Source: Escherichia phage vB_VIPECOMC04
DNA: 45,658 bases
Direction: 5' to 3' (one strand)
Sequence record: PQ423993.1
Shown: positions 6,028 to 44,411 of the stretch, in pieces
Layout: each line of letters begins with the position of its first letter
How positions within the stretch are numbered: position 1 is the first letter of the stretch
Made by a program: the position numbers and the translations under genes
The notes under the pieces: generated by a model
Told to the model about the DNA's origin: nothing
Database searches by the model: none
What the model saw: the letters and a program-made list of their open reading frames with translations, nothing else

Positions 6028-6197
6028 AGTCAATTACCCCGAACTCATTTATGATTTGGGCCTTGTAGAAGTTGCCGTTTGATGCCAGGTGATACGCCTG
6101 CGCCATAGTCATCTCGCGATAAGTTGCTGCGCTGTTTTCGAATTCCATAACCATCAAAGTAACCATCTTCCGTCTCTCCTCTCGTTTGCGTAAATGA

Positions 6198-6226
6198 ATA
6201 GTAGCCTATTCTATCTTACTATGCAA
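6198..6226 (-). promoter_or_regulatory. sigma70-like promoter (class B) with operator palindrome
   Basis: Minus-strand reading TTGCAT-17-TACTAT; the palindrome GAATAGT-ag-CCTATTC (6196-6211) overlaps the -10; lies upstream of the gene starting at 6166. Confidence 0.45.
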
Positions 6227-6340: not shown

Positions 6341-6676
6341 AAGTCACTAAGCCAAATAGTAACCTATTGACCTGTTACACCACCTGTTACACCAGCACGA
6401 GCCAGCACACCAGCTTTCCACGCCCGCCACGCGAGACGCGTCTTAACGTTCAGGTACTCTTTCTTCGAACCCTTGTTAACCGGCAGACCCTCTACGACAG
6501 CCCACCGTTCGAATGCCTGTCTCATACCAGAACCTCGCATTCATCCCGATACACGAACAATAACGACCCTTTGTACTCAATCATAAAACCATAATGGTTG
6601 CTGCTGAACGCCAGGAAAACATCACCTACCGAGATACCGAAATCTATAAGCCTGCGGTCAGTTATTCGTATTCTCA

Positions 6677-7158: not shown

Positions 7159-7192
7159 AACCTTCACTCCTCAGTCTCGTTTCGATAAGTGA

Positions 7193-7221
7193 ATAGTATC
7201 CTATTATGTTGGGGTGTGCAA
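7193..7221 (-). promoter_or_regulatory. sigma70-like promoter (class B) with operator palindrome
   Basis: Minus-strand reading TTGCAC-17-TACTAT; spacer accccaacataatagga is identical to the plus-strand copy at 29936-29952; palindrome GAATAGT-at-CCTATTA at 7191-7206. Confidence 0.55.
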
Positions 7222-7579: not shown

Positions 7580-7608
7580 TTGATTTCCCATTATTCGCAA
7601 TGTATACT
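7580..7608 (+). promoter_or_regulatory. candidate early promoter
   Basis: TTGATT-17-TATACT about 30 nt upstream of the first plus-strand gene (ATG 7641). Confidence 0.35.
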
Positions 7609-8099: not shown

Positions 8100-10340
8100 A
8101 TGACCGATGTAATTTTATCCTACTCGTGGTCTCGTCGCAACGCGCGGGCAGAGAAAAAGGATATAAACGTCAGAACCACACACACGGCAACACTGGACGA
8201 CCTGAAAGAGTTAATACAGCCGCTTGATGCCGTTCGTGGCGGAATTAACCCTAAGACCGCACCAGGCTACATCACCGCCGCGTGTGACTCAACGCACAGC
8301 ACCGTAAAAGACCCGGAAACAGGTGACTTTAAGCAAGCGCGCAAAGGTTTCTTTTATCGCTGTGACGCGTCTGTAATCAAATCGTCACTTGCGTATCTGG
8401 ACTTCGACAGTGCAACGCCGGAAGAGTATCGGGAAGCGGTGCGCCTGGTTAAGCGCAGCCGCCCAGCGATGTGCCTCTACACTACGGCATCACATACCGA
8501 TGAGTCGCCGCGCTTTCGCGTCGTCATGCCGCTGGCCCACCCGGTTGAAGGGGGTGACATCATCCGTGTTCGGCATGGATTGCTGGAGCACTTCTTCAAA
8601 GGCATGGGTGCGGACCGTAGCGGGTTCACTCTGTCTCAGCCGATGTACCTGCCGCCGGTTGGCTCTACTGTTATCTGGTCGCGCCGTAACGACCTGATTG
8701 ACCCCGACGAGTTACTGGAAGGTATCCCCGCCGTTGATGTTAGCAGCGCATCGGATTACCAGATACCAGAAGAACTGCGCACCGCGTTTACAGCTGCGTT
8801 CGAAGCCCTGGCGTTCGAATACGGCGGCATCATGACCCCACGCGGCCTTAAGATGCCAGCTACACCAGAACACGCAGAGAACTACAGCGACCCGACGCCG
8901 CGCCCAGACGACTTCCTGTTGTGCTTCCCGCGCGCCGGGTACGAAGCACCGAACGTAACCATGATTCACGACACCGACATTACTGCAACAGAAGGCATGT
9001 CACCGAAAGAGGTGTGGAAGTATGCGTGTGACGCTACCGGGCTGCCGTTCAGTGAAGTGGCTGAGGCCATCGGATGGGGTGCGCGGGAGTCCGTTTCATG
9101 CAGCCTGGACGACCTGGAAGATGACGAGGACTCAGAGGGTGACGAGTTACCAGAACCGGTAAAGGCTGATTTCGTCGTAGAAGGGTACATGCCGTCGGAT
9201 TGCATATGGGATATTGTTGGGGAATCCGGTACGTATAAATCATTCTATACGCTTGGGATGATGTACCTGAGCGCCGCCGGATACCGGTTTGCGGGAGCCG
9301 ATACCCAGCGTTGCCACCATTTCTATATTGACGGTGAGGGTGGCGCGACCACACGCACACGTATCGATGCGCTCGCGGCTAAATATGGTGAGGAAGGTAA
9401 AGATTATGTACATGTCATCGACATGGGTGAAGTAGGCAAACTGAAAAGCCTGATCAAGCTAATGCGCGAAACTGCTGGTGACGAGCCAATTGGCATGGTT
9501 GCGTTCGACACACTCAACCAGACACTGGCACTGACGATTGATAAGTTCGACGAGAACAGTTCATCAACGGCAATCGGCATGGGTAAAGTTATCGCCATCC
9601 TGAAAGAAGTGCGTGACGCTACTAAAGCCGCGGTAGGCGTTGTTCACCACACACCGAAGGGTGGAAAGAAAGCCCGTGGTAGCGGGGCGCTGTATGCCGG
9701 TGTTGATGTGGAGCTTACAATTGAGCGCGCAACCGACCGTCAGATAAACGTATACCACTCGAAATTTAAGCACGGGCCCCAACAGAAAACGGTTGGCATG
9801 GTGCTGGAGTCTGTACAGTTCCGTGAAGCCCCGCCGCCGAAAGAGTACCGTGCAGTTGAGTTCCTGGGTAACACAGAGGAATACGGCGCAATCGTAAACC
9901 TGGACTTGCCGGAACCACACAAAGCGCTTGTGCTGATGCCGTGGGGCTTCGAGCCGTTCAAAACTGACGAGGAGAAAGAGCGGGAAGAAGGGCTGACAAA
10001 GGAAGGTAAAGAAAACGTAAAGAATGCTGTAAAACGTGGGAAGGATGAAGGGCGTAAGGAATCAATACTCGCCGCGCTGGAAGACCTGCAACAGTCCGAC
10101 GACACAGGCCGCGGTTTTACCCAACGGCAGATAGTGGCGAACTCAGGCGACCACGCTATCACAAACCACCATCTTGAGAAGATGCTGAAAGAAGGTGAGT
10201 TGATGCTTGGGTGTGATGCCAACGGTGAAGTTATACCGGGCACATACCGGATACCTGAAAAGATGGGTGACAGATTAAGACCGAAGACAATATACGAACC
10301 GAATGGAATGCTGGTGGTGACAGAAGAGGATTTGGAATAG
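8100..10340 (+). CDS. primase-polymerase (AEP-like) fused to a RepA/DnaB-like AAA ATPase
   Basis: N-terminal AEP-like motifs (LDFD, ASHTDES); central Walker A GESGTYKS and Walker-B-like MVAFD; ends ...VVTEEDLE. Confidence 0.7.
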   Translation: MTDVILSYSWSRRNARAEKKDINVRTTHTATLDDLKELIQPLDAVRGGINPKTAPGYITAACDSTHSTVKDPETGDFKQARKGFFYRCDASVIKSSLAYLDFDSATPEEYREAVRLVKRSRPAMCLYTTASHTDESPRFRVVMPLAHPVEGGDIIRVRHGLLEHFFKGMGADRSGFTLSQPMYLPPVGSTVIWSRRNDLIDPDELLEGIPAVDVSSASDYQIPEELRTAFTAAFEALAFEYGGIMTPRGLKMPATPEHAENYSDPTPRPDDFLLCFPRAGYEAPNVTMIHDTDITATEGMSPKEVWKYACDATGLPFSEVAEAIGWGARESVSCSLDDLEDDEDSEGDELPEPVKADFVVEGYMPSDCIWDIVGESGTYKSFYTLGMMYLSAAGYRFAGADTQRCHHFYIDGEGGATTRTRIDALAAKYGEEGKDYVHVIDMGEVGKLKSLIKLMRETAGDEPIGMVAFDTLNQTLALTIDKFDENSSSTAIGMGKVIAILKEVRDATKAAVGVVHHTPKGGKKARGSGALYAGVDVELTIERATDRQINVYHSKFKHGPQQKTVGMVLESVQFREAPPPKEYRAVEFLGNTEEYGAIVNLDLPEPHKALVLMPWGFEPFKTDEEKEREEGLTKEGKENVKNAVKRGKDEGRKESILAALEDLQQSDDTGRGFTQRQIVANSGDHAITNHHLEKMLKEGELMLGCDANGEVIPGTYRIPEKMGDRLRPKTIYEPNGMLVVTEEDLE

Positions 10341-10357
10341 GTAAAAAGAAAGGGGCG

Positions 10358-10573
10358 TTAAGCCCCTTCACCGAACGCCAGCCACTTGGCGTCTACTTCC
10401 AGTACTTCCGCCAGTTTAAACAGCGTTGCCGGGCGGACGTCCTGAGTTACCCCAAGTGCCAGCTGGTTAATTGCGCCCTGGGACACCCCAGTCAGGACAG
10501 CCAGACGGCGCTGGGAGATGCCAAGTTCTTTACGGCGTTGTTCTACACGAATGCCTAGTTCAGATGGTTGCAT
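10358..10573 (-). CDS. XRE/Cro-CI family HTH transcriptional regulator
   Basis: 71 aa; ISQRRLAVLTGVSQGAINQLALG is a classic XRE helix-turn-helix; AAGGAG RBS; divergent from the class A promoters. Confidence 0.75.
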   Translation of the reverse strand: MQPSELGIRVEQRRKELGISQRRLAVLTGVSQGAINQLALGVTQDVRPATLFKLAEVLEVDAKWLAFGEGA

Positions 10574-10593
10574 TTCAATTACTCCTTAGTTAG

Positions 10594-10622
10594 TTGACAT
10601 GTGAATAGTACCATATTAATTA
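10594..10622 (+). promoter_or_regulatory. promoter-like element, class A (degenerate -10) with operator
   Basis: TTGACA-17-TAATTA; contains GAATAGT-ac-CATATTA; sits 44 bp upstream of a better copy. Confidence 0.35.
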
Positions 10623-10637
10623 TTTTAGAAAAGCCCA

Positions 10638-10666
10638 TTGACATGTGAATAGTTCGCTATTATAGT
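10638..10666 (+). promoter_or_regulatory. sigma70-like promoter, class A, with operator
   Basis: TTGACA-17-TATAGT; spacer holds the palindrome GAATAGT-tc-GCTATTA (10647-10662); 32 nt upstream of ATG 10698. Confidence 0.6.
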
Positions 10667-10697
10667 TAACCCATACCAAACGAGAGGAGAGAAACAA

Positions 10698-11198
10698 ATG
10701 TTAGAGAAATTCTTAGTATTACTGGAACGTTTCGTAGTTGCGCATGAACTGATTGCTGCGAATAGTGCGAAACAGTTCGCGCCAACTACTGCCAAAGAGG
10801 CTGCCGCAGTAGCCGCTCATAAAATTGAGCAGTTCTCTGAAAGTATTAAAGAAGAAACAAAAGAAATCTCGGTCGAAGGTGAAGACGTCGTTGACACTAA
10901 ACCAGCAGAAGAAGAGAAGCCTAAACGCAAGCCGCGTAAAGCTAAAGTAGAGGAACCAACGCCAGAACCGGAAGAAGAGAAAGAAGAAGTCGATTACCAG
11001 TCTCTGCGTGACCAGATTCAGGCTATCGACGATGCGATTAACGAAGGTCCGAGCGACGCCGCGTGTGATGATTCCGATGAACTGCTTGAAGAGTTCACCG
11101 GTAAGAAGATGAAGATTGCCGCGATTAAAGACGAAGACCTGGCTGAATACCTGGAACGACTGACAGCAATCAAGAACAAGTATTTCGAAGAAGAATAA
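10698..11198 (+). CDS. acidic low-complexity protein
   Basis: ORF track; E/K/P-rich, ends ...KYFEEE; GAGGAGAGA RBS. Confidence 0.45.
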   Translation: MLEKFLVLLERFVVAHELIAANSAKQFAPTTAKEAAAVAAHKIEQFSESIKEETKEISVEGEDVVDTKPAEEEKPKRKPRKAKVEEPTPEPEEEKEEVDYQSLRDQIQAIDDAINEGPSDAACDDSDELLEEFTGKKMKIAAIKDEDLAEYLERLTAIKNKYFEEE

Positions 11199-11241
11199 CT
11201 ATCCTGCGGCCCTCGGGCCGCTTTAACTGAGGGTCGGAATT

Positions 11242-11514
11242 ATGATTTACCAACTCTACCGTGCCGTTGACAGGCGGGATAACACAGAGGCGCTATGGTT
11301 ATTGCGTGCGCCGTCCGGTGCTCACCAGATGGAAGAGATGGCGTACTTAGGCAAAGTACCGCGGGCTAAAGATATAAGCCGTCATGTGTCGCAGATTAAG
11401 CGCACGACTTTTGCCAAGCCTGACTTTTATGTCTTCGAGTCGATGTATGGATGGGCCATGCATTGCCAGCACCCGACCAGACATTTAATTGACCAGTGGG
11501 AGAGCAGGGTATGA
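11242..11514 (+). CDS. hypothetical protein
   Basis: ORF track. Confidence 0.4.
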   Translation: MIYQLYRAVDRRDNTEALWLLRAPSGAHQMEEMAYLGKVPRAKDISRHVSQIKRTTFAKPDFYVFESMYGWAMHCQHPTRHLIDQWESRV

Positions 11515-11858
11515 CGGATAAATGGTGGCTTAATTTGCGCAGCGGTGACAAGGTTTACACCGTCGGTGACCGCAGAAAGAACAGCGGCGTAGCTACTGTG
11601 TTACAAAACGGCAAAAAGTACATCCACATTGCGCATGAAGCCCGGGCGCTCCGCGTGAATAAATCTTCTGGTAGGCTTGAGGATTACCCGAAAACATTAA
11701 TATACAAAAGTGAAAAGCATCACATGGCCGCTGTTGACGCAAGACGTCAGTTCGCAGGAATGTTGCGACAGTTAAGCGACTTACATCGCGATGATTCTTT
11801 CACACCCTCAGAAGAACAGCTACAGGCATTAAACTTGTATTTGGAGAGTTTACGATGA
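11511..11858 (+). CDS. hypothetical protein
   Basis: ATG 11511 overlaps the upstream stop (ATGA); ORF track frame. Confidence 0.4.
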   Translation: MTDKWWLNLRSGDKVYTVGDRRKNSGVATVLQNGKKYIHIAHEARALRVNKSSGRLEDYPKTLIYKSEKHHMAAVDARRQFAGMLRQLSDLHRDDSFTPSEEQLQALNLYLESLR

Positions 11859-13096
11859 TTCTAAAAGAACGCGGCGGCAATAACGATGTTCACGCCTTAC
11901 TTTCGCCGTCAGGTGCTAAAAAATGGCTGTCATGCGCTGCATCACTGGCCTGTGAAAAAGATATTCCTAACACGTCGGGTAAATCCGCCGTTACGGGGAC
12001 AGCGTGCCACACCATAGCTGAAGTCCATCTCAACGCCTATATCCGCGGCACTGCGTTGCCGTTAGAGCGTGAAGTTGGCGCTTACGTGCTGGATGAGGGT
12101 AAAGGCCAGATTAAGGCGCTAATCAGCCCGATGAAAGGCGCGGTACTGATTACGGCGGACATGATTGAGCAGGTGCGCAAGTACACCGACTACTGCAAAG
12201 CGATTATCGACGTTGCAACTTACGCAAAGCTGGAGATGCGGGTAAATCTTACTGAGGTGCTGCATCCTGGTTACGAAGGCGTTGAGACATTCGGAACTGC
12301 TGACCTTGTTGCCGTTCAGGAACTGGCGAACACAGACGAGCACATGCTCATTATCGGAGACCTTAAAACAGGACGGCATCGTGTTGAAGCGAAAGAAAAC
12401 AAGCAGCTTATGCTCTACGCTCTCGGTGTTTATCGCCGACTCAAGAGACGTTATAACATCACCGCGGTTCGTCTGGCCATCTTTCAGCCATACGCTGGCG
12501 GCGCGTCGGAGTGGGACATCTCGGTTGAAGGTCTGGAACTGTTCGCTAAGTTTGCGCAGAAACGGGCGCTGTTAGCTCTTGATGCGTATTTCCGTGGTAA
12601 AAAGAACCTGAAAGCGTCGGACTTCAGGCCGTCTGTCGACGGTTGCCAATGGTGCCGTTTCTCAGAGCAGTGCGCCGCGCGTACAAAAACCGTCAACGCG
12701 GTGCTGGCGGAAGAACTGGAGGACGACTTTGCGCTGGAACTGACGCCGGAGCAACTCGTCGCTGAGTATGAGAAGCTGCCGCTGTTGCGCCAGCACATCG
12801 ATAAGGTTGAGAAAGCTATGGCTGCTGCGTTGCATTCCGGTAAGAAAGTTCCTGGGTACAAGCTGGTTGAAGGTAAGATGGGCAATCGTGCGTGGAAAGA
12901 CGCGGAGAAAGTAACAGAACTCTACGGCGACAAGCTGACTAAAGAAGTGCTCATGACGCCAACCGAAGCTGTTAAAGTGATACCGGAAGAAGAACTGAAA
13001 GACTTCATCACACGTAAGCCAGGTGCCCCATGCATCACAACGGCAGACGACAAACGGCCTGAGTGGAATCAGGTTAGTGAAGAAGATTTGGAATAA
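11855..13096 (+). CDS. PD-(D/E)XK exonuclease, Cas4/RecB-like with Fe-S cysteines
   Basis: Motifs IIGDLKTG and QLMLYALG plus Cys pattern C...CQWCRFSEQC; ends ...VSEEDLE. Confidence 0.7.
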   Translation: MILKERGGNNDVHALLSPSGAKKWLSCAASLACEKDIPNTSGKSAVTGTACHTIAEVHLNAYIRGTALPLEREVGAYVLDEGKGQIKALISPMKGAVLITADMIEQVRKYTDYCKAIIDVATYAKLEMRVNLTEVLHPGYEGVETFGTADLVAVQELANTDEHMLIIGDLKTGRHRVEAKENKQLMLYALGVYRRLKRRYNITAVRLAIFQPYAGGASEWDISVEGLELFAKFAQKRALLALDAYFRGKKNLKASDFRPSVDGCQWCRFSEQCAARTKTVNAVLAEELEDDFALELTPEQLVAEYEKLPLLRQHIDKVEKAMAAALHSGKKVPGYKLVEGKMGNRAWKDAEKVTELYGDKLTKEVLMTPTEAVKVIPEEELKDFITRKPGAPCITTADDKRPEWNQVSEEDLE

Positions 13097-13101
13097 AGTG
13101 T

Positions 13102-13130
13102 TGACACCTGAATAGTTAGCTATTATAGTT
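13102..13130 (+). promoter_or_regulatory. sigma70-like promoter, class A, with operator
   Basis: TTGACA-17-TATAGT; palindrome GAATAGT-ta-GCTATTA at 13111-13126; upstream of the SSB gene. Confidence 0.6.
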
Positions 13131-13184
13131 CTAATCACTGGCCGGGCAGCTCCCGGAGTAAACTGAAAACTGAGGAATCGAGAA

Positions 13185-13830: not shown

Positions 13831-13856
13831 AAGGCCCTTCATTGGGCCTTTTTACC
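13831..13856 (+). terminator. intrinsic terminator
   Basis: AAGGCCC-ttcatt-GGGCCTT followed by TTTACC. Confidence 0.5.
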
Positions 13857-13865
13857 GGAGTCAGA

Positions 13866-14339
13866 ATGGAACATATAAAAGATTTTCTTAGCTATAACCG
13901 AGAAACCGGAATATTCATATGGATACAACCTACATACAGACGAGGGAAACCTGGAGACATCGCAGGATGCATCAATAGTAGTGGATACTGGCGAATACCT
14001 TATATGGGTAGATATTACATGGCCCACAGGCTCGCTTGGTTTTTCGAGTACGGTGAATGGCCCGAGGGTCCTCTTGACCACATAAACCGTGACAGGTTAG
14101 ACAATAGGATTTCTAACCTAAGGAAAGCAACCACCGCAGATAATGTGCGAAACGCTAAAAATAAGGGGGCTAGAACGGGAGTTAAGGGAGTAGTTAAAAC
14201 CGACAACCGATTTTATGGGCGGGTACATTTTAACTACAAAAGTTATAATGCGGGTAGCTACGGAACTCTTGAAGAAGCAGAAAGCGCTGTAAAGAAATTA
14301 AGAGAAAAATTGCATAAGGAATTTTATTGCCATGACTAG
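13866..14339 (+). CDS. HNH homing endonuclease with AP2 domain
   Basis: HRLAWFFEYGEWPEGPLDHINRDRLDNRISNLR (HNH) followed by an AP2-like segment; abuts the DNA polymerase start. Confidence 0.8.
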   Translation: MEHIKDFLSYNRETGIFIWIQPTYRRGKPGDIAGCINSSGYWRIPYMGRYYMAHRLAWFFEYGEWPEGPLDHINRDRLDNRISNLRKATTADNVRNAKNKGARTGVKGVVKTDNRFYGRVHFNYKSYNAGSYGTLEEAESAVKKLREKLHKEFYCHD

Positions 14340-16530
14340 TTTATTATACCTGGATACCGAGACATTCTCCGAAGCAGACTTAAAGAAAGTCGGGTCGTAT
14401 GCGTATGCGGAGCACCCAACGACAGAGGTTATAATTTGTACATATGCCGTTGATGATGGCCCTGTAGAAATATGGGATTGCACTTCCGAACCTGTAATGC
14501 CGATAAGCCTCTGTGTGGCTCTCCGTAATGTTATGCGTGGGCGTATGAAAATCGTGGGCCATAACTTTTTAATGTTCGACAGGCTCGTCATGAAACACTG
14601 CTGGGACTTTGATATTCCTGTAGGCAACACCATTGATACGATGATTTGGGCGTTTCGTCACGCGCTGCCGGGTTCCCTCGATGCGTTGTGCGAAGTGCTG
14701 GGCGTGTCAGCAGACAACGCGAAAGACAAACGAGGCAAGGCGCTGATTCAGCGTTTCTCTAAACCGACGCCGAAGAACTACAAAATCCGTCGCTACACCG
14801 CTGAAACACACCCGGACGAGTGGGCACTGTTCATCAAATACGCCGTGAGTGACATCACCGCAATGCGTGAAGTCTTCCATAAGCTGCCGCGGTGGGGTAA
14901 CTCCGAGTTAGAAGACCGTGTACTGGAACTGGACCAGTTAATCAACGACCGCGGGTTTAAGGTTGACGTTGCTCTGGCAGAAGCCGCGATTGAAGCTGTG
15001 GAGAAGCACAAGGCACAGTTACAGGAAGAAGCCCAACGCAAATACGGCGGCTCGCTTACCGGAAAGGACTTCCTTCCTATTCTGCGTGAACTTGCCCCAG
15101 CGCACCGCATACACAACGCACAGAAGTCGACGCTTAACGACCTGTTGGCGGACGATGATTTACCGGACGATGCTCGCACGATTATCGAAATGCGCCTCGG
15201 GGCCGCATCCACCGCGTCAACGAAATATAACCCATTGCTGTTGGGCCGCTCATCGGACGACCGCCGCCGGGGTTGTTTACAGTACGGTGGGGCAAAACGC
15301 ACTTTGCGGTGGGCGGGTAAAGGCTTCCAACCACAGAACCTGGCGCGCGGGTACTATCACGATGATGAACTGGATAAAGGCATTTCAGCGTTACTTAAAG
15401 GCCGGGCACACCGCCGTTTTGATGTAGCCAAGCTAACGGCATCGACGGTACGTAGCTGCATCATACCGGAAGTGGGGCATAAGTTTGTTGTTGCCGATTA
15501 CTCTAACGTTGAGGGTCGTGGGCTTGTGTGGTTGGCAGGCGAAGAAACCGCGCTTGATACTTTCCGCGCCGGGTTGGATATTTATTGCGTAACTGCAGGT
15601 AAGATGTTTGGCATGGACCCCGACGATATTAAGAAAAACTTTAAGGAAATCAGACAGATAGGCAAGGCTTGCGAACTGGGCCTCGGTTACGAGGGAGGCG
15701 TCGGAGCATTCGTTACGTTCGCCAAAAACTTAGGCCTCGACCTTATTGAGATGGCTAAAACAATGGACGGTACGTTCCCCGACCACATCTGGGCCGCTAC
15801 CGCACGCGGGTATGAGTGGGCGCGCATCCAGGAAGCCAAGCGCCCCCCGCATCCAGGTGAGAAGGATGACCGACCATCGTATATTCTGGACAAGAAAGTG
15901 TGGCGCACCTGCGACGCAATCAAGCGTATGTGGCGCGAGTCACACCCGGAAACAGTAGCGTTCTGGCGCGACCTCAAAGACGGTATTTTAGCCGCTGTAA
16001 GAAATCCGGGTCGTGAATTTTGGGCGGGGGCGCATCTGCGCAAGAATGGCGAGCGCGCTATCCGAATCTGGAGAACAGTAGAAACCGATTCATCCGGTAG
16101 GAAGGTTCCCGGTTGGTGGTTGTGTATGGAGTTGCCGTCGGGCCGTATCCTCTCGTATCCAGGAATCGGCGTTAGCGTGACAAAAGAAACAGACGAAGAC
16201 GGACGGGTAAACACGAATGTGCGAATCAAGTACCAAGGTGAAAACCAGTTAACCCGCCAATGGACTACCCTGTACACCCACGGCGGCAAAGCCTGCGAAA
16301 ACATTGTTCAGGCGCTGTGCCGTGATTTACTCGCATATGCGATGGTTAATGTTGAGGGTGGCGGGTATCCAATCGTGCTTTCGGTACACGATGAACTGGT
16401 ATGTGAAACTCCAGATACGCCGGATTACACGGTGCCTGAGCTGGAAAAATTAATGTGCACGTTGCCTGAGTGGGCAGAAGGCTTCCCTCTTGTCGCGGAA
16501 GGTAGCGAAATGTACAGATATGCTAAATGA
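14332..16530 (+). CDS. family A DNA polymerase with 3'-5' exonuclease
   Basis: Exo I YLDTETFS; motif A DYSNVEGR; motif B RQIGKACELGLGYEGG; motif C VHDELVCE. Confidence 0.9.
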   Translation: MTSLLYLDTETFSEADLKKVGSYAYAEHPTTEVIICTYAVDDGPVEIWDCTSEPVMPISLCVALRNVMRGRMKIVGHNFLMFDRLVMKHCWDFDIPVGNTIDTMIWAFRHALPGSLDALCEVLGVSADNAKDKRGKALIQRFSKPTPKNYKIRRYTAETHPDEWALFIKYAVSDITAMREVFHKLPRWGNSELEDRVLELDQLINDRGFKVDVALAEAAIEAVEKHKAQLQEEAQRKYGGSLTGKDFLPILRELAPAHRIHNAQKSTLNDLLADDDLPDDARTIIEMRLGAASTASTKYNPLLLGRSSDDRRRGCLQYGGAKRTLRWAGKGFQPQNLARGYYHDDELDKGISALLKGRAHRRFDVAKLTASTVRSCIIPEVGHKFVVADYSNVEGRGLVWLAGEETALDTFRAGLDIYCVTAGKMFGMDPDDIKKNFKEIRQIGKACELGLGYEGGVGAFVTFAKNLGLDLIEMAKTMDGTFPDHIWAATARGYEWARIQEAKRPPHPGEKDDRPSYILDKKVWRTCDAIKRMWRESHPETVAFWRDLKDGILAAVRNPGREFWAGAHLRKNGERAIRIWRTVETDSSGRKVPGWWLCMELPSGRILSYPGIGVSVTKETDEDGRVNTNVRIKYQGENQLTRQWTTLYTHGGKACENIVQALCRDLLAYAMVNVEGGGYPIVLSVHDELVCETPDTPDYTVPELEKLMCTLPEWAEGFPLVAEGSEMYRYAK

Positions 16531-17042
16531 TGATGGGGTGGTTTATGAGAGATTTAATTAATTGGCATGACCATTTCTACTACGAACCTGACACGGGGAA
16601 GATACGATGGAAGTATTCCCCGAGACACAGTATAAACGCCGGAGACGAAGCCGGTAGTCCAAGTAAGAGAGGATACATCTGTATCGTCGTCAGAGGGGTT
16701 AGTTACAGGGCTAATCGTATCGCATGGGGGATGTATAACAATGACCGTTTAGGGCCTGATGATGAAGTAGACCATATAAATCATATCCTGGATGATAATC
16801 GTGCATGCAACCTTCGGAAAGTATCCCGTACTGATAATAACCGAAACGCATCTCGCAGAAAAGATAACAAGTCAGGTATCACTGGTGTGCACTGGAACGC
16901 ACGGGCGGCTAAATGGAAAGCAGGTATATTCGTTGACGGTAAACTTATATTCCCGGGCCACCATGACAATATATTTGACGCGGCTTGTGTACGGAAATCC
17001 GCGATTGTTCGCTACGGCTTTCATGAGAATCACGGAGGTTAG
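16527..17042 (+). CDS. HNH homing endonuclease with AP2 domain
   Basis: HNH core EVDHINHILDDNRACNLR plus AP2-like C-terminus; overlaps the DNA polymerase stop. Confidence 0.8.
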   Translation: MMMGWFMRDLINWHDHFYYEPDTGKIRWKYSPRHSINAGDEAGSPSKRGYICIVVRGVSYRANRIAWGMYNNDRLGPDDEVDHINHILDDNRACNLRKVSRTDNNRNASRRKDNKSGITGVHWNARAAKWKAGIFVDGKLIFPGHHDNIFDAACVRKSAIVRYGFHENHGG

Positions 17043-17410: not shown

Positions 17411-17739
17411 CTAAAGAGGGGCGCATCCAGAAATACGCAAAAGAGCGATTCGAGGCCATTGGTGGCCTCGTTCGTAAATTGTCGTACGAAAACAGAGTGG
17501 GAGCCCCTGACCTGCTGGTAATTCTACCCGGCGGCATCGTCTGGTTCGTCGAGGTTAAGAAAGACGAAAACACGAAGCCAGACCCGCACCAGCTACGGGA
17601 ACATGAGAGATTCCGAAAACGTGGAGTTAATGTTTTTGTCGTTGGTTCGTTTAAACAGGTTGACGCCCTAATAGCATACTATTATAGTTATCACATACCC
17701 CAACAATATAAGGAATTGAGAAATGAAATACGAATATGA
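17407..17739 (+). CDS. VRR-NUC domain nuclease
   Basis: GAPDLLVILPGGIVWFVEVK fits the PD-(D/E)XK VRR-NUC signature; start taken at ATG 17407 within the track ORF. Confidence 0.6.
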   Translation: MTKEGRIQKYAKERFEAIGGLVRKLSYENRVGAPDLLVILPGGIVWFVEVKKDENTKPDPHQLREHERFRKRGVNVFVVGSFKQVDALIAYYYSYHIPQQYKELRNEIRI

Positions 17740-29929: not shown

Positions 29930-29958
29930 TTGCGCACCCCAACATAATAGGATACTAT
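29930..29958 (+). promoter_or_regulatory. sigma70-like promoter (class B) with operator palindrome
   Basis: TTGCGC-17-TACTAT; palindrome TAATAGG-at-ACTATTC at 29945-29960; drives the plus-strand moron cassette. Confidence 0.55.
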
Positions 29959-29999
29959 TCACTTACACCAACAATGTTAACTCAAACAGGAGCTACACC

Positions 30000-35986: not shown

Positions 35987-37036
35987 TTAAGCACCGACAC
36001 CAGTTACCAGGAAGGCAATCGGTACATGCTTACGTTCAACCACACGGTTCCAGTTGGAGGCATTCGCCAGGTCCTGCCAGGAAGCGGAGCGTGCTACCGT
36101 CTCGGTGCCGTTGCCGGTGATTACTGCGCTGGTGAAGCTGTATCCCAATGGGTGCAGCAACCAGGTCTTACGGGTCCACAGGGTTTCAACGCCGCCACCG
36201 TTGCCGCGGGACTCTTCACGTTCATATGCCAGCGGATTGGTCGGGTTACCTTCGCCGTAACCGATAGCGCCGTTGCCGAAGATGATGGAGATGAACTTAC
36301 GGCTCGGGCCGGTGCCAACTACGGTCATGCTGTCATCAACAATCACGCGGTAACCCTGGTAGGTGGCGAACAGGGTGTCGTTGTCAGCGTTTTTGATGAA
36401 GTCGATAAGCTGCTGCTTACGTGCCTGCGCATAAACGAAGCTGTGCATCGCGATAGCACCCAGCACTTCTCCGCCGTTGCCTATCAGCGCATCACCCATA
36501 GTCTGGGTGGCGTCGATGAACGCACCTGCGTCGAAGCCCAGAGTAGCAGACACGTCTACAACCATGTCATTCCGCTCGTGGTATGCGTCGGTAGCGGCTA
36601 CGTTGTCATTGTACAGACCGAGCGCGGTAGCGATCAGACGGCGTTGCGCCTGGCGCTGCCAGAAGTTATCCAGACGGGACGCTACTGATTGCAGCGGGTT
36701 CTGGCTGGTCAGTTCGACAGTCAGGTCCGCCTGACCAAAACCTTCGTTCAGGTACGCAACGCGCGCCATCATCTCACCGGTCTGCACGTTACGCGGGGTA
36801 GCGATGTCCTGGTATACGTCGTTCGAGTAGTTCGGCTCGATGGAAGTGTCAATCGCTTTCCAGAAAGGAATATTAGCGACGTTGGACGGGCCGCGGGCAA
36901 TCTCGGCAGCGTATGGGGTCGGGGTCAGAATACCAGACTGGAAGAACGCGGTTTTTTCTACCGGGTCCTCGGTCATATAAGACGCCAGGACCGGGATGTT
37001 GCCAGTTACGATATCGCCGATAGTGGTAATTGCCAT
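35987..37036 (-). CDS. major capsid protein
   Basis: 349 aa; immediately after the scaffold gene; RBS-coupled. Confidence 0.7.
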   Translation of the reverse strand: MAITTIGDIVTGNIPVLASYMTEDPVEKTAFFQSGILTPTPYAAEIARGPSNVANIPFWKAIDTSIEPNYSNDVYQDIATPRNVQTGEMMARVAYLNEGFGQADLTVELTSQNPLQSVASRLDNFWQRQAQRRLIATALGLYNDNVAATDAYHERNDMVVDVSATLGFDAGAFIDATQTMGDALIGNGGEVLGAIAMHSFVYAQARKQQLIDFIKNADNDTLFATYQGYRVIVDDSMTVVGTGPSRKFISIIFGNGAIGYGEGNPTNPLAYEREESRGNGGGVETLWTRKTWLLHPLGYSFTSAVITGNGTETVARSASWQDLANASNWNRVVERKHVPIAFLVTGVGA

Positions 37037-38607: not shown

Positions 38608-38887
38608 ACTTGCAAGATACTTTATTGGGCCTACTTATGTACTTAACGACTTCACGGGTAATCACCTCTGATTTCGTCTTGCCTTCGTTGTCGGCGGCTG
38701 CGGCCTTTGATTCATCCTGCTGCTGCCGTTGTGTTTTCTTCGCTAACTCAGCCTGCGCTTTCTGCTGTTGCTGCGAAACGAGATTCGCCCGGCCTTCATT
38801 CCAGCCGCTGCGGTACTGATAGATGCCGTGTGCGTAAGCCAGGATGATGAAACATGCTCCTGCTACGACAGTTGCTTTAAGATTCAT
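38528..38887 (-). CDS. Rz-like inner-membrane spanin candidate
   Basis: N-terminal TM anchor MNLKATVVAGACFIILAYAHGIY, then a Q/A/K-rich coiled coil. Confidence 0.45.
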   Translation of the reverse strand: MNLKATVVAGACFIILAYAHGIYQYRSGWNEGRANLVSQQQQKAQAELAKKTQRQQQDESKAAAADNEGKTKSEVITREVVKYISRPNKVSCKFDADRVRVKYDAISNANGIPGYDYTE

Positions 38888-39138
38888 GTTTCCCCTTTCT
38901 CGATAAGTAAAGCCCCGCCTTAAAGCGGGGCGCTAGTCCTTATCATTTAAACATAGAAACGGCGTAATCTCAGTAAACCAGTTACTTTTTACACAAGCAA
39001 TAGAGTATGGCCCTTCCGAACGCGTCAGCGTAACTACACTCAGGACTTACGTCCCGCTCCGTTACCTGCCCGCGCCGCGGTCGCTTGTTCATACTTCACA
39101 AGCTCAGGTGGAGCTTAGCACATTTTTAGTGAAAAGTC

Positions 39139-39154
39139 AACTATTCGAATAGTT
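39139..39154. promoter_or_regulatory. perfect 16-bp palindrome built from the operator half-site
   Basis: AACTATTCGAATAGTT; same GAATAGT/ACTATTC half-sites as the promoter operators but in everted order; abuts a TTGACT hexamer on the minus strand. Confidence 0.4.
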
Positions 39155-39206: not shown

Positions 39207-39235
39207 TTGCGCGCACCAACATAATAGGGTACTAT
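39207..39235 (+). promoter_or_regulatory. sigma70-like promoter (class B) with operator palindrome
   Basis: TTGCGC-17-TACTAT; palindrome TAATAGG-gt-ACTATTC at 39222-39237; 28 nt upstream of the mini-clamp ATG. Confidence 0.55.
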
Positions 39236-39262
39236 TCGGTTAACTTAAACAGGAGATGAGAA

Positions 39263-39784
39263 ATGGTTACTACAGTAATTACTTTCCCTGCGTATGTAGG
39301 GGCGAAAATATGCAGGGCTAAAAATGATGTTCGCTACTATTTGAACGCTTTTTACATAGACCCTGAAGGATTGATAGTGTCTACGGACGGTCATAGATTG
39401 TTCTGCGACAATGTGAAGACCAACGTTGAGAAAGGGACTCTCATAGACATCAAAGGGAGAGAGCCTTCTAAATTTAACTACGCGGAGGTAAACCACGACA
39501 ACGGCAGTGTATCTTTCTATGACGATAATCGTGCGCTTATATGTACACTTCCGGTAGATGTTGTAGAAGGAAACTTTCCTGACTGGAGACGCGTGGTGCA
39601 CATCACACCGGGTGTTGTCGATAGTATAGGGTTCACCCTGCGCTATTTGGCAGACGCGTACAAGATTTCTAAGGCATACAAAAATGAAATTGCTCGTTTC
39701 GATTTCCAGGACCAAACCAGAGGATGTAAAATACTATTTTCAAACACGGCCTTTATGGTGTTAATGCCTGCGCGATTTAAATAA
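39263..39784 (+). CDS. truncated beta sliding clamp homolog (DnaN domain II plus C-terminal segment)
   Basis: DVRYYLN, TDGHRL, GNFPDWRRV, IGFTLRYLAD and VLMPARF align with E. coli DnaN DVRYYLN, TDGHRL, GRFPDYRRV, IGFNVSYVLD and VVMPMRL as recalled; AGGAG RBS; own promoter and terminator. Confidence 0.8.
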   Translation: MVTTVITFPAYVGAKICRAKNDVRYYLNAFYIDPEGLIVSTDGHRLFCDNVKTNVEKGTLIDIKGREPSKFNYAEVNHDNGSVSFYDDNRALICTLPVDVVEGNFPDWRRVVHITPGVVDSIGFTLRYLADAYKISKAYKNEIARFDFQDQTRGCKILFSNTAFMVLMPARFK

Positions 39785-42864: not shown

Positions 42865-43019
42865 AGATATAGACCCTCGGGTATGGGTGTCAAAAGCCTA
42901 ATAAAAATTAGGTTGCAAGTCACCAGAAACTCGCTACTGCGAGTTTTACTTGCACCGGGCTGGCGGTCAATATATCTTATCATTAAGCAGATAAAAATGA
43001 ATTGTTGGAGGGGGTACGC

Positions 43020-44399
43020 ATGGGCAGAAGAATAACTGAAGAAGAAATCAAAAACCGGTTAGCTATGTTTGGGTTTAAATTGGTTAAATATGGCGGGTCG
43101 CAAGTAGCAAAATCCGTTATAAAATGCCCCAATGGACACGAGGAATTGAAGTCGCTTAACACCTTCACAGCTAATGGTGTGCGCTGTAAATCTTGCGCTG
43201 CTGCTGAAAGGAGTCTGGCGTACAGCACCGACGAGACCGAAGCGAGAAGGATAGTCGAGGACATGGGGTATTCGCTGATAAAATACGGCGGCGATTTGTA
43301 CCGCAAAAAATCTACCGTCCAATGTGCAAACGGTCATGTGCGCGAAGTTCGCATAGGAAATATGGTTAAGGGTCATCGCTGCAAAAAGTGCGTGGCGGAA
43401 GCAATGTGTTTGGCGGAAGACGGGGTTAACACCAGACTACCAGATGGGGTCAAGATGGATTTTTACTGCGGCAACACGCGGGGGCTTAGTCTATTTTCTT
43501 GCGAAAAAGGGCACTCGTGGTCCGCATCCGTGAATAACGTAGTGTCTCAACAAACGAAATGTCCTAAATGCTCTAATAACGTAAGTGGTATGGAAAAAGA
43601 AGTTCTGTCGTTTATCCGCGGAGTATACCCAGGTGTTGTCAATACGTCCGTACGGTCGCTTATCTCGCCGTTTGAGCTGGACATAGTATTGCCGGAGATT
43701 AAGGTGGTCATAGAATTTAACGGCATCTATTGGCATTCCGAGGCGAATGGTAAACACCGTAACTACCACATAAATAAGAGATTAGCGTGTGAGAAACTTG
43801 GGTACAGGCTGATAAGCGTACGAAGCGACCTTTGGTTAGAGAAGCGAGAGCATATTGAGCGCATTTTGAAGAACGCGGTAGGGGTACGTACTGTGTCTAT
43901 TTTTGCCAGAAAATGTCGTGTGGTAGAAATAGCCAACAAAGACGCATTCCGGTTCTGTGAGGACAATCACATCCAGGGTGGGACAAAGGCTACAAAAGCG
44001 TATGCATTACTTCACGCTGGTGAGGTGGTTGCGGTAATGACTTTGGTACATTGGCGCAGCAAGGACTCATGGGAGCTGGTGCGATATTGCACCAGTACGT
44101 CCGTGCCCGGTGGCCTAAGTAAGCTGTGGAAACATGTGACGCAAGAAAACAACATTAAGCAAGCGTTCACTTATACCGACCGTGACCTTTTCACCGGTGC
44201 ATCTTACGCAGAAGCTGGGTTTATATTTGATAGCTGCTCCGTAGGGTTTCGCGTTGTCGTAGGAACTCGTACAGAATCCCGCCAGAAATGGGGCAAAGCT
44301 CCTGATGGTCTTACCCAAACAGAGTGGTACGAACGAGAAAAAGTGACGCGCATATGGGATAGCGGTCAGGATAAGTGGGAATGGGTTAAAGGGGCATAA
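43020..44399 (+). CDS. homing-endonuclease-like protein (three Cys4 zinc-ribbon repeats plus nuclease-like domain)
   Basis: ATG 43020 with GGAGGGGG upstream; repeats CPNGHE...CKSC, CANGH...CKKC, CEKGH...CPKC; ELDIVLPEIKVVIEFNGIYWHSE resembles Vsr/DUF559-type nuclease cores; opposite strand to its neighbours. Confidence 0.45.
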   Translation: MGRRITEEEIKNRLAMFGFKLVKYGGSQVAKSVIKCPNGHEELKSLNTFTANGVRCKSCAAAERSLAYSTDETEARRIVEDMGYSLIKYGGDLYRKKSTVQCANGHVREVRIGNMVKGHRCKKCVAEAMCLAEDGVNTRLPDGVKMDFYCGNTRGLSLFSCEKGHSWSASVNNVVSQQTKCPKCSNNVSGMEKEVLSFIRGVYPGVVNTSVRSLISPFELDIVLPEIKVVIEFNGIYWHSEANGKHRNYHINKRLACEKLGYRLISVRSDLWLEKREHIERILKNAVGVRTVSIFARKCRVVEIANKDAFRFCEDNHIQGGTKATKAYALLHAGEVVAVMTLVHWRSKDSWELVRYCTSTSVPGGLSKLWKHVTQENNIKQAFTYTDRDLFTGASYAEAGFIFDSCSVGFRVVVGTRTESRQKWGKAPDGLTQTEWYEREKVTRIWDSGQDKWEWVKGA

Positions 44400-44411
44400 G
44401 CCCCTTTTTAC

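Follow-up and report, generated by a model that had tools for sequence, protein, structure and literature searches.

The closest described counterpart of the regulator considered here is Cro of phage 434, which is likewise 71 aa long, lacks an oligomerisation domain and acts on a 14-bp palindromic operator with half-sites of 4–5 bp. The 434 operators read ACAAG..., three of them lie at the locus, and cro is the first gene of an early operon and part of a bistable switch with its CI partner. A different arrangement is known from P1 C1, the L5 gp71 stoperators and the phiC31 c repressor, where one small repressor acts through many operators on promoters across the genome. P1, L5 and phiC31 are temperate, their repressors maintain the prophage and their operators are mostly asymmetric. 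A homologue of the present regulator, the lambdoid Cro gp53 of Enterobacter phage CobraSix (36–38% identity), occupies the Cro slot opposite a CI-like gene, and three 14-bp ACAG-N6-CTGT sites can be read from the sequence between the two. In many Jerseyvirus and Kagunavirus GenBank records, the same gene as the one studied here is labelled transcriptional repressor, DicA or XRE family regulator, and this repressor is included in the core regulatory genes of Jerseyvirus (PMC8425127). No description of its operator, two promoter classes, regulon or mechanism was found in the searchable literature.

The window analysed here, the whole 45,658-nt stretch of Escherichia phage vB_VIPECOMC04 (PQ423993.1), represents a Kagunavirus (Guernseyvirinae) related to the E. 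coli siphophages K1G and K1ind. Its segment 9800–11400 matched 446 phage records at 80–99% identity, almost all of them Escherichia or Salmonella phages. Two HNH_3 endonuclease genes (13842–14339 and 16527–17042), located on either side of the DNA polymerase gene, were missing from the annotated relative Ivi, as was a 1.5-kb insert (42868–44410) between the large terminase and portal genes. ORF 43002–44399 (plus strand, 465 aa), antisense to the late genes, combined a treble-clef zinc finger (DUF4379) with a weak REase-like match and is probably a mobile nuclease. Integrase and partition genes were absent from the annotation of Ivi, and a domain scan of the window-specific inserts (tailspike, two HNH genes, nuclease-like ORF) revealed no integration or partition genes, in agreement with the initial annotation, which had stated that integrase and other lysogeny genes are absent.

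The regulator gene (10358–10573, minus strand, ATG start) lies between a primase-helicase gene (AAA_25, 8100–10340) and a gene for a 166-aa acidic protein (10698–11198), both on the plus strand, confirming its reported orientation opposite to the surrounding genes. Its identification from the sequence as a 71-aa Cro/CI-type HTH protein was likewise upheld by the ORF, profile, sequence and structure comparisons. The product is a Cro/CI-type HTH protein (HTH_3, XRE), combining a Pfam HTH_3 match (residues 11–65; 47.2 bits where the cut-off is 23, E = 2e-12) with a five-helix fold containing the helix 2-turn-helix 3 unit, and it also matched PHROG repressor families. Its best PDB sequence match was 434 Cro (E = 2e-6, residues 6–68, about 37–39% identity). 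The AF2 model (pLDDT 77.6) placed helices at residues 5–17, 21–28, 32–39, 48–57 and 62–66; the underlying alignment was shallow because the homologue search returned only relatives of at least 78% identity. The top Foldseek matches of this model were the 434 repressor N-domain and 434 Cro, then SinR and P22 C2 (TM 0.72–0.75), and HipB and the restriction–modification (R-M) controller proteins C.AhdI and C.BclI were also among its fold neighbours. The predicted recognition helix reads SQGAINQ; where 434 Cro has QQSIQL the present protein has QGAINQ, with the first Gln conserved between the two. The regulator was 95–100% identical across Kagunavirus and about 50% identical in Jerseyvirus.

The regulator consists of the HTH domain only and is devoid of the C-terminal dimerisation or S24 autocleavage domain, a make-up that does not match a temperate immunity repressor. 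No second repressor or divergent CI-type gene shared the operator region, the neighbours being the primase-helicase and acidic protein genes. Unlike cro of 434, the Kagunavirus gene is monocistronic with its own terminator rather than the first gene of an early operon, and it has neither a CI partner nor a bistable switch. A lambdoid Cro belonging to a CI/Cro switch was therefore rejected. CobraSix is temperate, encodes CI, CII, integrase and excisionase, and has operators confined to its immunity region. In phages vB_STM-ZS and Smarc3, the regulator gene heads the primase-helicase operon. Two further roles were considered and dismissed: an XRE antitoxin of the HigA/HipB type, since no co-oriented neighbouring ORF exists, a terminator follows immediately and HipB and HigA are fold neighbours only; and an R-M controller (C) protein, since no endonuclease gene is adjacent and the only methyltransferase lies 7 kb away.

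The gene possesses its own expression signals. A ribosome-binding site (AAGGAG, 10582–10587, minus strand), 8 nt upstream of the ATG, was kept in 37 relatives, and an intrinsic terminator (10349–10369, minus strand) comprises an 8-bp stem followed by CUUUUUA. The last codons of the regulator make up this stem, with the stop codon TAA in the loop. In plus-strand RNA the stem also forms and the U tract is absent; as the U tract occurs solely on minus-strand RNA, the hairpin terminates the regulator gene. The hairpin reported at the 3' end of the regulator gene was thus confirmed; for the primase-helicase gene, which it also follows, it is no convincing terminator. As no plus-strand terminator was present downstream of the primase-helicase gene (10341–10573), RNA started at 7580, a promoter-like site free of operators, would extend across the regulator gene in antisense. 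Such readthrough of primase-helicase transcripts is probable and could interfere with regulator transcription or delay regulator expression. Elsewhere in the window, a GC-rich hairpin, AGGCC(C)-N-GGGCCT, occurred in four copies at operon ends (13832, 20411, 31784 and 39790); these are probably a family of bidirectional terminators.

Upstream of the regulator gene, the 16-bp repeat TTGACATGTGAATAGT was present in exact copies at 10594–10609 and 10638–10653, 44 bp apart. Weaker relatives occurred at 13101 and 7182, and four matches were reached in 0/100 shuffles. The second copy belongs to P2 (TTGACA-17-TATAGT, 10638–10666, plus strand), a strong promoter by score (11/12) that is conserved in relatives and drives 10698–13096, encoding the acidic protein, a ProQ-C-like protein and a DUF2800 nuclease. 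The first forms a marginal promoter, P1 (TTGACA-18-AATTAT, 10594–10623, plus strand; 10/12), found in this phage only. Each element contains a 14-bp palindrome, AATAG-N4-CTATT, which the initial annotation had left unspecified. The candidate operator O1, AATAGTACCATATT (10604–10617), is imperfect with one mismatch and coincides in part with the region where transcription from the candidate regulator promoter would begin, whilst O2, AATAGTTCGCTATT (10648–10661), is a perfect palindrome in the P2 spacer. Compared with the three local operators of 434, two are present here, with AATAG rather than ACAAG half-sites. Positions 10610–10642, which begin in the right half of O1 and reach the beginning of the P2 -35, matched a CRISPR spacer over 33/33 nt. 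This spacer belongs to the type I-E array proximal to iap in E. coli strain 2017.09.02CC (NZ_AP025214.2); in the minus-strand reading, an ATG PAM (read from the sequence) precedes this protospacer.

To compare this region among relatives, 37 Kagunavirus loci from IMG/VR were extracted by position, not by motif. The first '-35' was mostly TTGATA, with some TCGATA, CCGATA or TTTATA, and its -10 was poor; the exact 16-bp repeat was peculiar to this phage. The first element kept AATAGTAcCATATT across the Kagunavirus loci, so the single O1 mismatch is itself conserved. In the second copy, the stretch from TTGACA to TGAATAG varied in sequence and by 1 nt in length, and the centre of O2 varied (TTCG, TTAG, TTCA, TTTG, CTCG, CTAG), whereas its AATAG and CTATT half-sites were invariant (37/37 loci). 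From this pattern, the functional units are the two 14-bp palindromes, and element 1 is better read as a putative operator, O1, that covers the promoter and 5' end of the regulator itself. The initial annotation had described two tandem promoter elements in a divergent, autoregulatory geometry. The repeats are indeed exact, both score as sigma70-like and the regulator gene does diverge from an operator-bearing promoter, P2; with its unconserved -35, the first element does not form an equivalent promoter, and the tandem pair falls away. The reading given there amounts to a local switch, in which P1 and P2 face the regulator gene and the regulator times downstream transcription, acting at this locus only. 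Both repeats scoring as promoters in this phage and the divergent geometry speak for such a local arrangement, which we nevertheless consider unlikely given the state of the P1 -35 and -10 in relatives and the occurrence of the same palindrome at seven or more other promoters, detailed below.

A candidate promoter of the regulator itself, TTCACA-16-TAAAAT (10622–10649, minus strand; 10/12), abuts the P2 -35 with its own -35. Across the 37 relatives its -10 was mostly kept, and of its -35 only TTCA was kept. With a putative start site and a partly conserved -35, the regulator promoter is uncertain in Kagunavirus. Relative to this candidate, the centre of O2 would fall near -40, with O1 extending from about +1 to +12. 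In Jerseyvirus, the regulator promoter read from the sequence is TTGCGT-17-TACTAT, and the O1 equivalent covers its -10.

The palindrome was not restricted to the regulator locus. An unbiased scan of the window for 5+5 palindromes (gaps of 0–8 nt) ranked AATAG-N4-CTATT first with 8 exact copies, the runners-up being terminator stems with 4 copies. With one mismatch allowed, 11 sites were found (8 exact, 3 near) versus 0.96 expected, a number that 0/100 shuffles reached. Seven of the eight exact sites were located on sigma70-like promoters of two architectures, and the palindrome was borne by 6/9 of the best sigma70-like sites of the window. Beyond the regulator locus, about 7–9 other promoters carried it; with at least seven further promoters marked genome-wide, the notion of a system confined to this locus is not supported. 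About ten candidate operators scattered over the genome set this phage apart from 434 and resemble the distributed promoter operators of P1 C1, L5 gp71 and phiC31 c, although those proteins are unrelated to the present regulator or larger.

In class A promoters, TTGAC[A/G]-N4-5-AATAGnnnnCTATTATAGT (sites 10648, 13111 and 17670), the operator lies within the spacer. Besides P2, this class comprises P3 (13101–13129, plus strand; operator 13111–13124), which drives a gp2.5-like SSB, an HNH gene and DNA polymerase, and a promoter at 17660–17688 (plus strand; operator 17670–17683), which drives a 63-aa gene together with genes for a DNA methyltransferase and a helicase. In class B promoters, TTGC[A/G]C...CAACATAATAGGnTACTATTC, the operator lies over the -10 (sites 7192 and 6197, leftward; 29946 and 39223, rightward). 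The first promoter of the leftward small-gene operon, TTGCAC-17-TACTAT (7193–7221, minus strand), has its -10 covered by operator 7192–7205, and TTGCAT-17-TACTAT (6198–6226, minus strand; operator 6197–6210) precedes small leftward genes. The two rightward members both serve islands: TTGCGC-17-TACTAT (29930–29959, plus strand; operator 29946–29959) drives an Imm-like gene and a DNA repair exonuclease among the tail genes, and the promoter at 39207–39236 (plus strand; operator 39223–39236) drives a clamp/RusA-like gene (39263–39784) among the head genes. The initial annotation had proposed that the regulator times early-to-middle or late transcription. Behind the palindrome-marked promoters lie genes of DNA metabolism and small genes of early type rather than structural genes. 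No operator accompanies the promoter-like site at 7580, which precedes both the HTH_17 gene and the primase-helicase gene.

The remaining sites were more heterogeneous. The exact palindrome AATAGTAACCTATT (6355–6368) is an orphan with no recognisable -35; it adjoins a minus-strand terminator where a small leftward ORF ends, lies 158 bp away from the operator at 6197, and could be an auxiliary or roadblock site. One-mismatch palindromes at 2432–2445 and 39132–39145 overlap the -35 (TTGACT) of leftward promoters and make up a third, weaker placement class. The former lies ahead of small genes that precede the terminase and the latter upstream of the head-gene block at 38887 and below (spanin and capsid, by position in Ivi). 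Shortly after P3, where the SSB mRNA is predicted to begin, a separate conserved element, CACTGGCCGGGCAGCTCCCGGAGTAAACT (13136–13164), was observed. Among the loci of Kagunavirus, Jerseyvirus and ZS its CCGGG/CCCGG stem was nearly invariant and its loop variable; this hairpin may stabilise the mRNA or serve as a translational operator. For the AATAG palindrome itself, a role as RNA structure was rejected, as its stem is AT-rich and of 5 bp only and it resides in promoter DNA upstream of the start sites.

Conservation of the palindrome was also apparent at P3, where the half-sites were kept and the centre was variable in 35 Kagunavirus and 13 Jerseyvirus loci. These loci were anchored on the downstream conserved element, so the comparison is free of ascertainment bias. 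Fixed half-sites around a variable central 4 nt, as in O2 and P3, are typical of an operator contacted by a dimer, and would fit such binding here. The P2 14-mer of Jerseyvirus wksl3, AATAGAGTACGATT, becomes identical to its P3 counterpart when reverse-complemented. The occurrence of two registers relative to the hexamers and of both orientations (Jerseyvirus, vB_STM-ZS) shows that the palindrome is an independent unit rather than a part of the promoter. This bears on the idea that it is merely a shared promoter or recombination-linker sequence spread by duplication and served by no dedicated binding protein. The flanks are indeed similar within each promoter class; given the two registers and both orientations, together with half-sites that stay fixed while the centre and upstream spacing vary, we regard that explanation as scarcely credible.

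The AATAG half-site was common to Kagunavirus (E. coli), Jerseyvirus (Salmonella) and Smarc3 (Serratia). Salmonella phage vB_STM-ZS has a divergent regulator (41% identical) and contained 0 AATAG-N4-CTATT sites even with one mismatch allowed. Instead, it carried three exact copies of ATTAG-N4-GTATT versus about 0.08 expected (estimated as genome size / 4^10), 2/3 of them on promoter-like sites homologous to those of the window, in both orientations relative to transcription. As ZS and the Jerseyviruses share Salmonella as their host, the motif follows phage lineage, not host. Covariation of the recognition helix with the operator across genera was weakly informative: Jerseyvirus has SQSLITH in place of the Kagunavirus SQGAINQ and largely keeps AATAG, whilst ZS changes both. 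The retention of AATAG in Jerseyvirus, with a regulator only about 50% identical, counts against the regulator as the protein that binds it.

The AATAG palindrome is a candidate (pseudo)palindromic operator, to which the regulator would bind as a dimer. That this protein is what binds AATAG-N4-CTATT is, on the sequence evidence, probable. Two candidate operators flank the regulator promoter in every Kagunavirus locus examined, and the regulator is the only recognisable transcription-factor fold common to all palindrome-bearing lineages. The 14-bp palindrome with its 5-4-5 geometry has the dimensions of the operators seen in 434 structures, and the homologue CobraSix gp53, beside its three 14-bp sites in the Cro slot, points the same way. 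The main competing possibility, that a different factor binds the palindromes and the XRE protein has its targets elsewhere, was judged rather unlikely, though it draws on two observations. The divergent region of the Smarc3 regulator contained no AATAG palindrome, whilst other Smarc3 promoters keep it, so protein and palindrome do not go together in every lineage. In addition, conservation of the 90-aa product of 11242–11514, a possible alternative binder, falls from 92% in Jerseyvirus to 59% in Smarc3 and 29% in ZS, in step with retention of the motif. This protein carries no DNA-binding signature, however, and the HTH_17 protein encoded at 7608 was ruled out because it is absent from Smarc3, which retains the palindromes. 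A host regulator was rejected because the motif variant tracks the phage lineage, and, to our knowledge, none of the consensus sites of CRP, FNR, OxyR (ATAG-N7-CTAT), MntR, Fur and TrpR fits the palindrome in spacing or sequence. The paired copies around the XRE promoter in all Kagunavirus loci, and a geometry that suits 434-type Cro proteins, also count against a different factor. Beside the Smarc3 regulator gene (36637–36830), five or six GATTGC/GCAATC repeats were observed, which may constitute a different operator set for that homologue. The Smarc3 regulator gave no match in IMG/VR when used as a query.

Taken as a 434-Cro-like repressor acting on palindromic operators, the regulator would probably exert a Cro-style turn-off of early and DNA-metabolism transcription that operates without CI, and this is the explanation we favour. 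Since nearly all other strong host-type promoters of the phage also carry the operator, either within the spacer or on the -10, we propose that these promoters fire and are then turned down jointly; the sign and timing of regulation and the start sites are what we infer here. Upon phage entry, host RNA polymerase would fire all near-consensus promoters. As the regulator, probably a dimer with AATAG-N4-CTATT as its likely operator, accumulated, it would occupy the perfect operators, and the DNA-metabolism and small-gene operons would be turned down together. Occupation of O2 would shut off P2 by occlusion, and binding to the weaker, imperfect O1 would limit the regulator's own transcription, amounting to negative autoregulation. 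RNA-seq of the Kagunavirus K1B4 showed that gene 004 (216 nt, flanked by gene 003 and the AAA-domain gene 005), which occupies the homologous position of the regulator gene, is expressed and belongs to the 'middle' class, and that the HTH_17 homologue, gene 008, belongs to the 'early' class (PMC12645636). These coarsely sampled expression classes are compatible with the turn-off model and not decisive.

The placement of operators on nearly all strong promoters, a feature shared with P1 C1 and L5 gp71, also raises the possibility of stronger repression. In one version, the regulator would be a global repressor of nearly every strong promoter, with O2, near -40, providing CI-like positive feedback at the regulator's own weak promoter and with a possible carrier state; we consider this distinctly improbable. 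A related reading, in which an immunity-type global repressor occasionally holds a supposedly strictly lytic phage in a quiescent, plasmid-like carrier state, appears very improbable. Apart from the operator distribution, it draws on the operator-free promoter at 7580 of the primase-helicase operon, and on PLSDB record CP088689.1 (pC16EC0033-2), a circular 'plasmid' of 44,086 bp deposited for an E. coli blood isolate, which is a Kagunavirus genome. Primase-helicase, XRE, DUF2800 nuclease, SSB and polymerase make up the same module in this record, which could represent either a carrier state or an assembly contaminant; possible contamination weakens its value as support. If a carrier state were real, only the operator-free primase-helicase operon would stay on, which is consistent with CP088689.1. 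The region was found as a prophage in 0/5,426 complete E. coli genomes, which counts against an immunity-type repressor, as do the lack of partition and integration genes in the Ivi annotation and the window-specific inserts, and a protein of only 71 aa with neither an oligomerisation nor a cleavage domain. Jerseyviruses also form clear plaques and show no mitomycin-inducible carriage (PMC8425127), which again argues against this reading. Serratia phage eta, described as forming 'unstable lysogens', was discarded as an informative relative, having the structural module alone in common.

A Cro-only regulon extending across the genome of a lytic phage would be a moderately unusual feature. Kagunaviruses and Jerseyviruses belong to the phages most frequently put forward for therapy and food biocontrol and are deemed safe partly because they lack lysogeny genes, and all these phages nonetheless carry this repressor gene. 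With a defined candidate operator and about ten target promoters, the role of this repressor becomes directly testable, and a compact repressor/operator pair together with strong sigma70 promoters in two operator placements would be reusable in engineering. If the regulator only lowers early transcription, its function would be that of an ordinary Cro; should it be able to silence the genome, this would matter for the view of these phages as strictly lytic.
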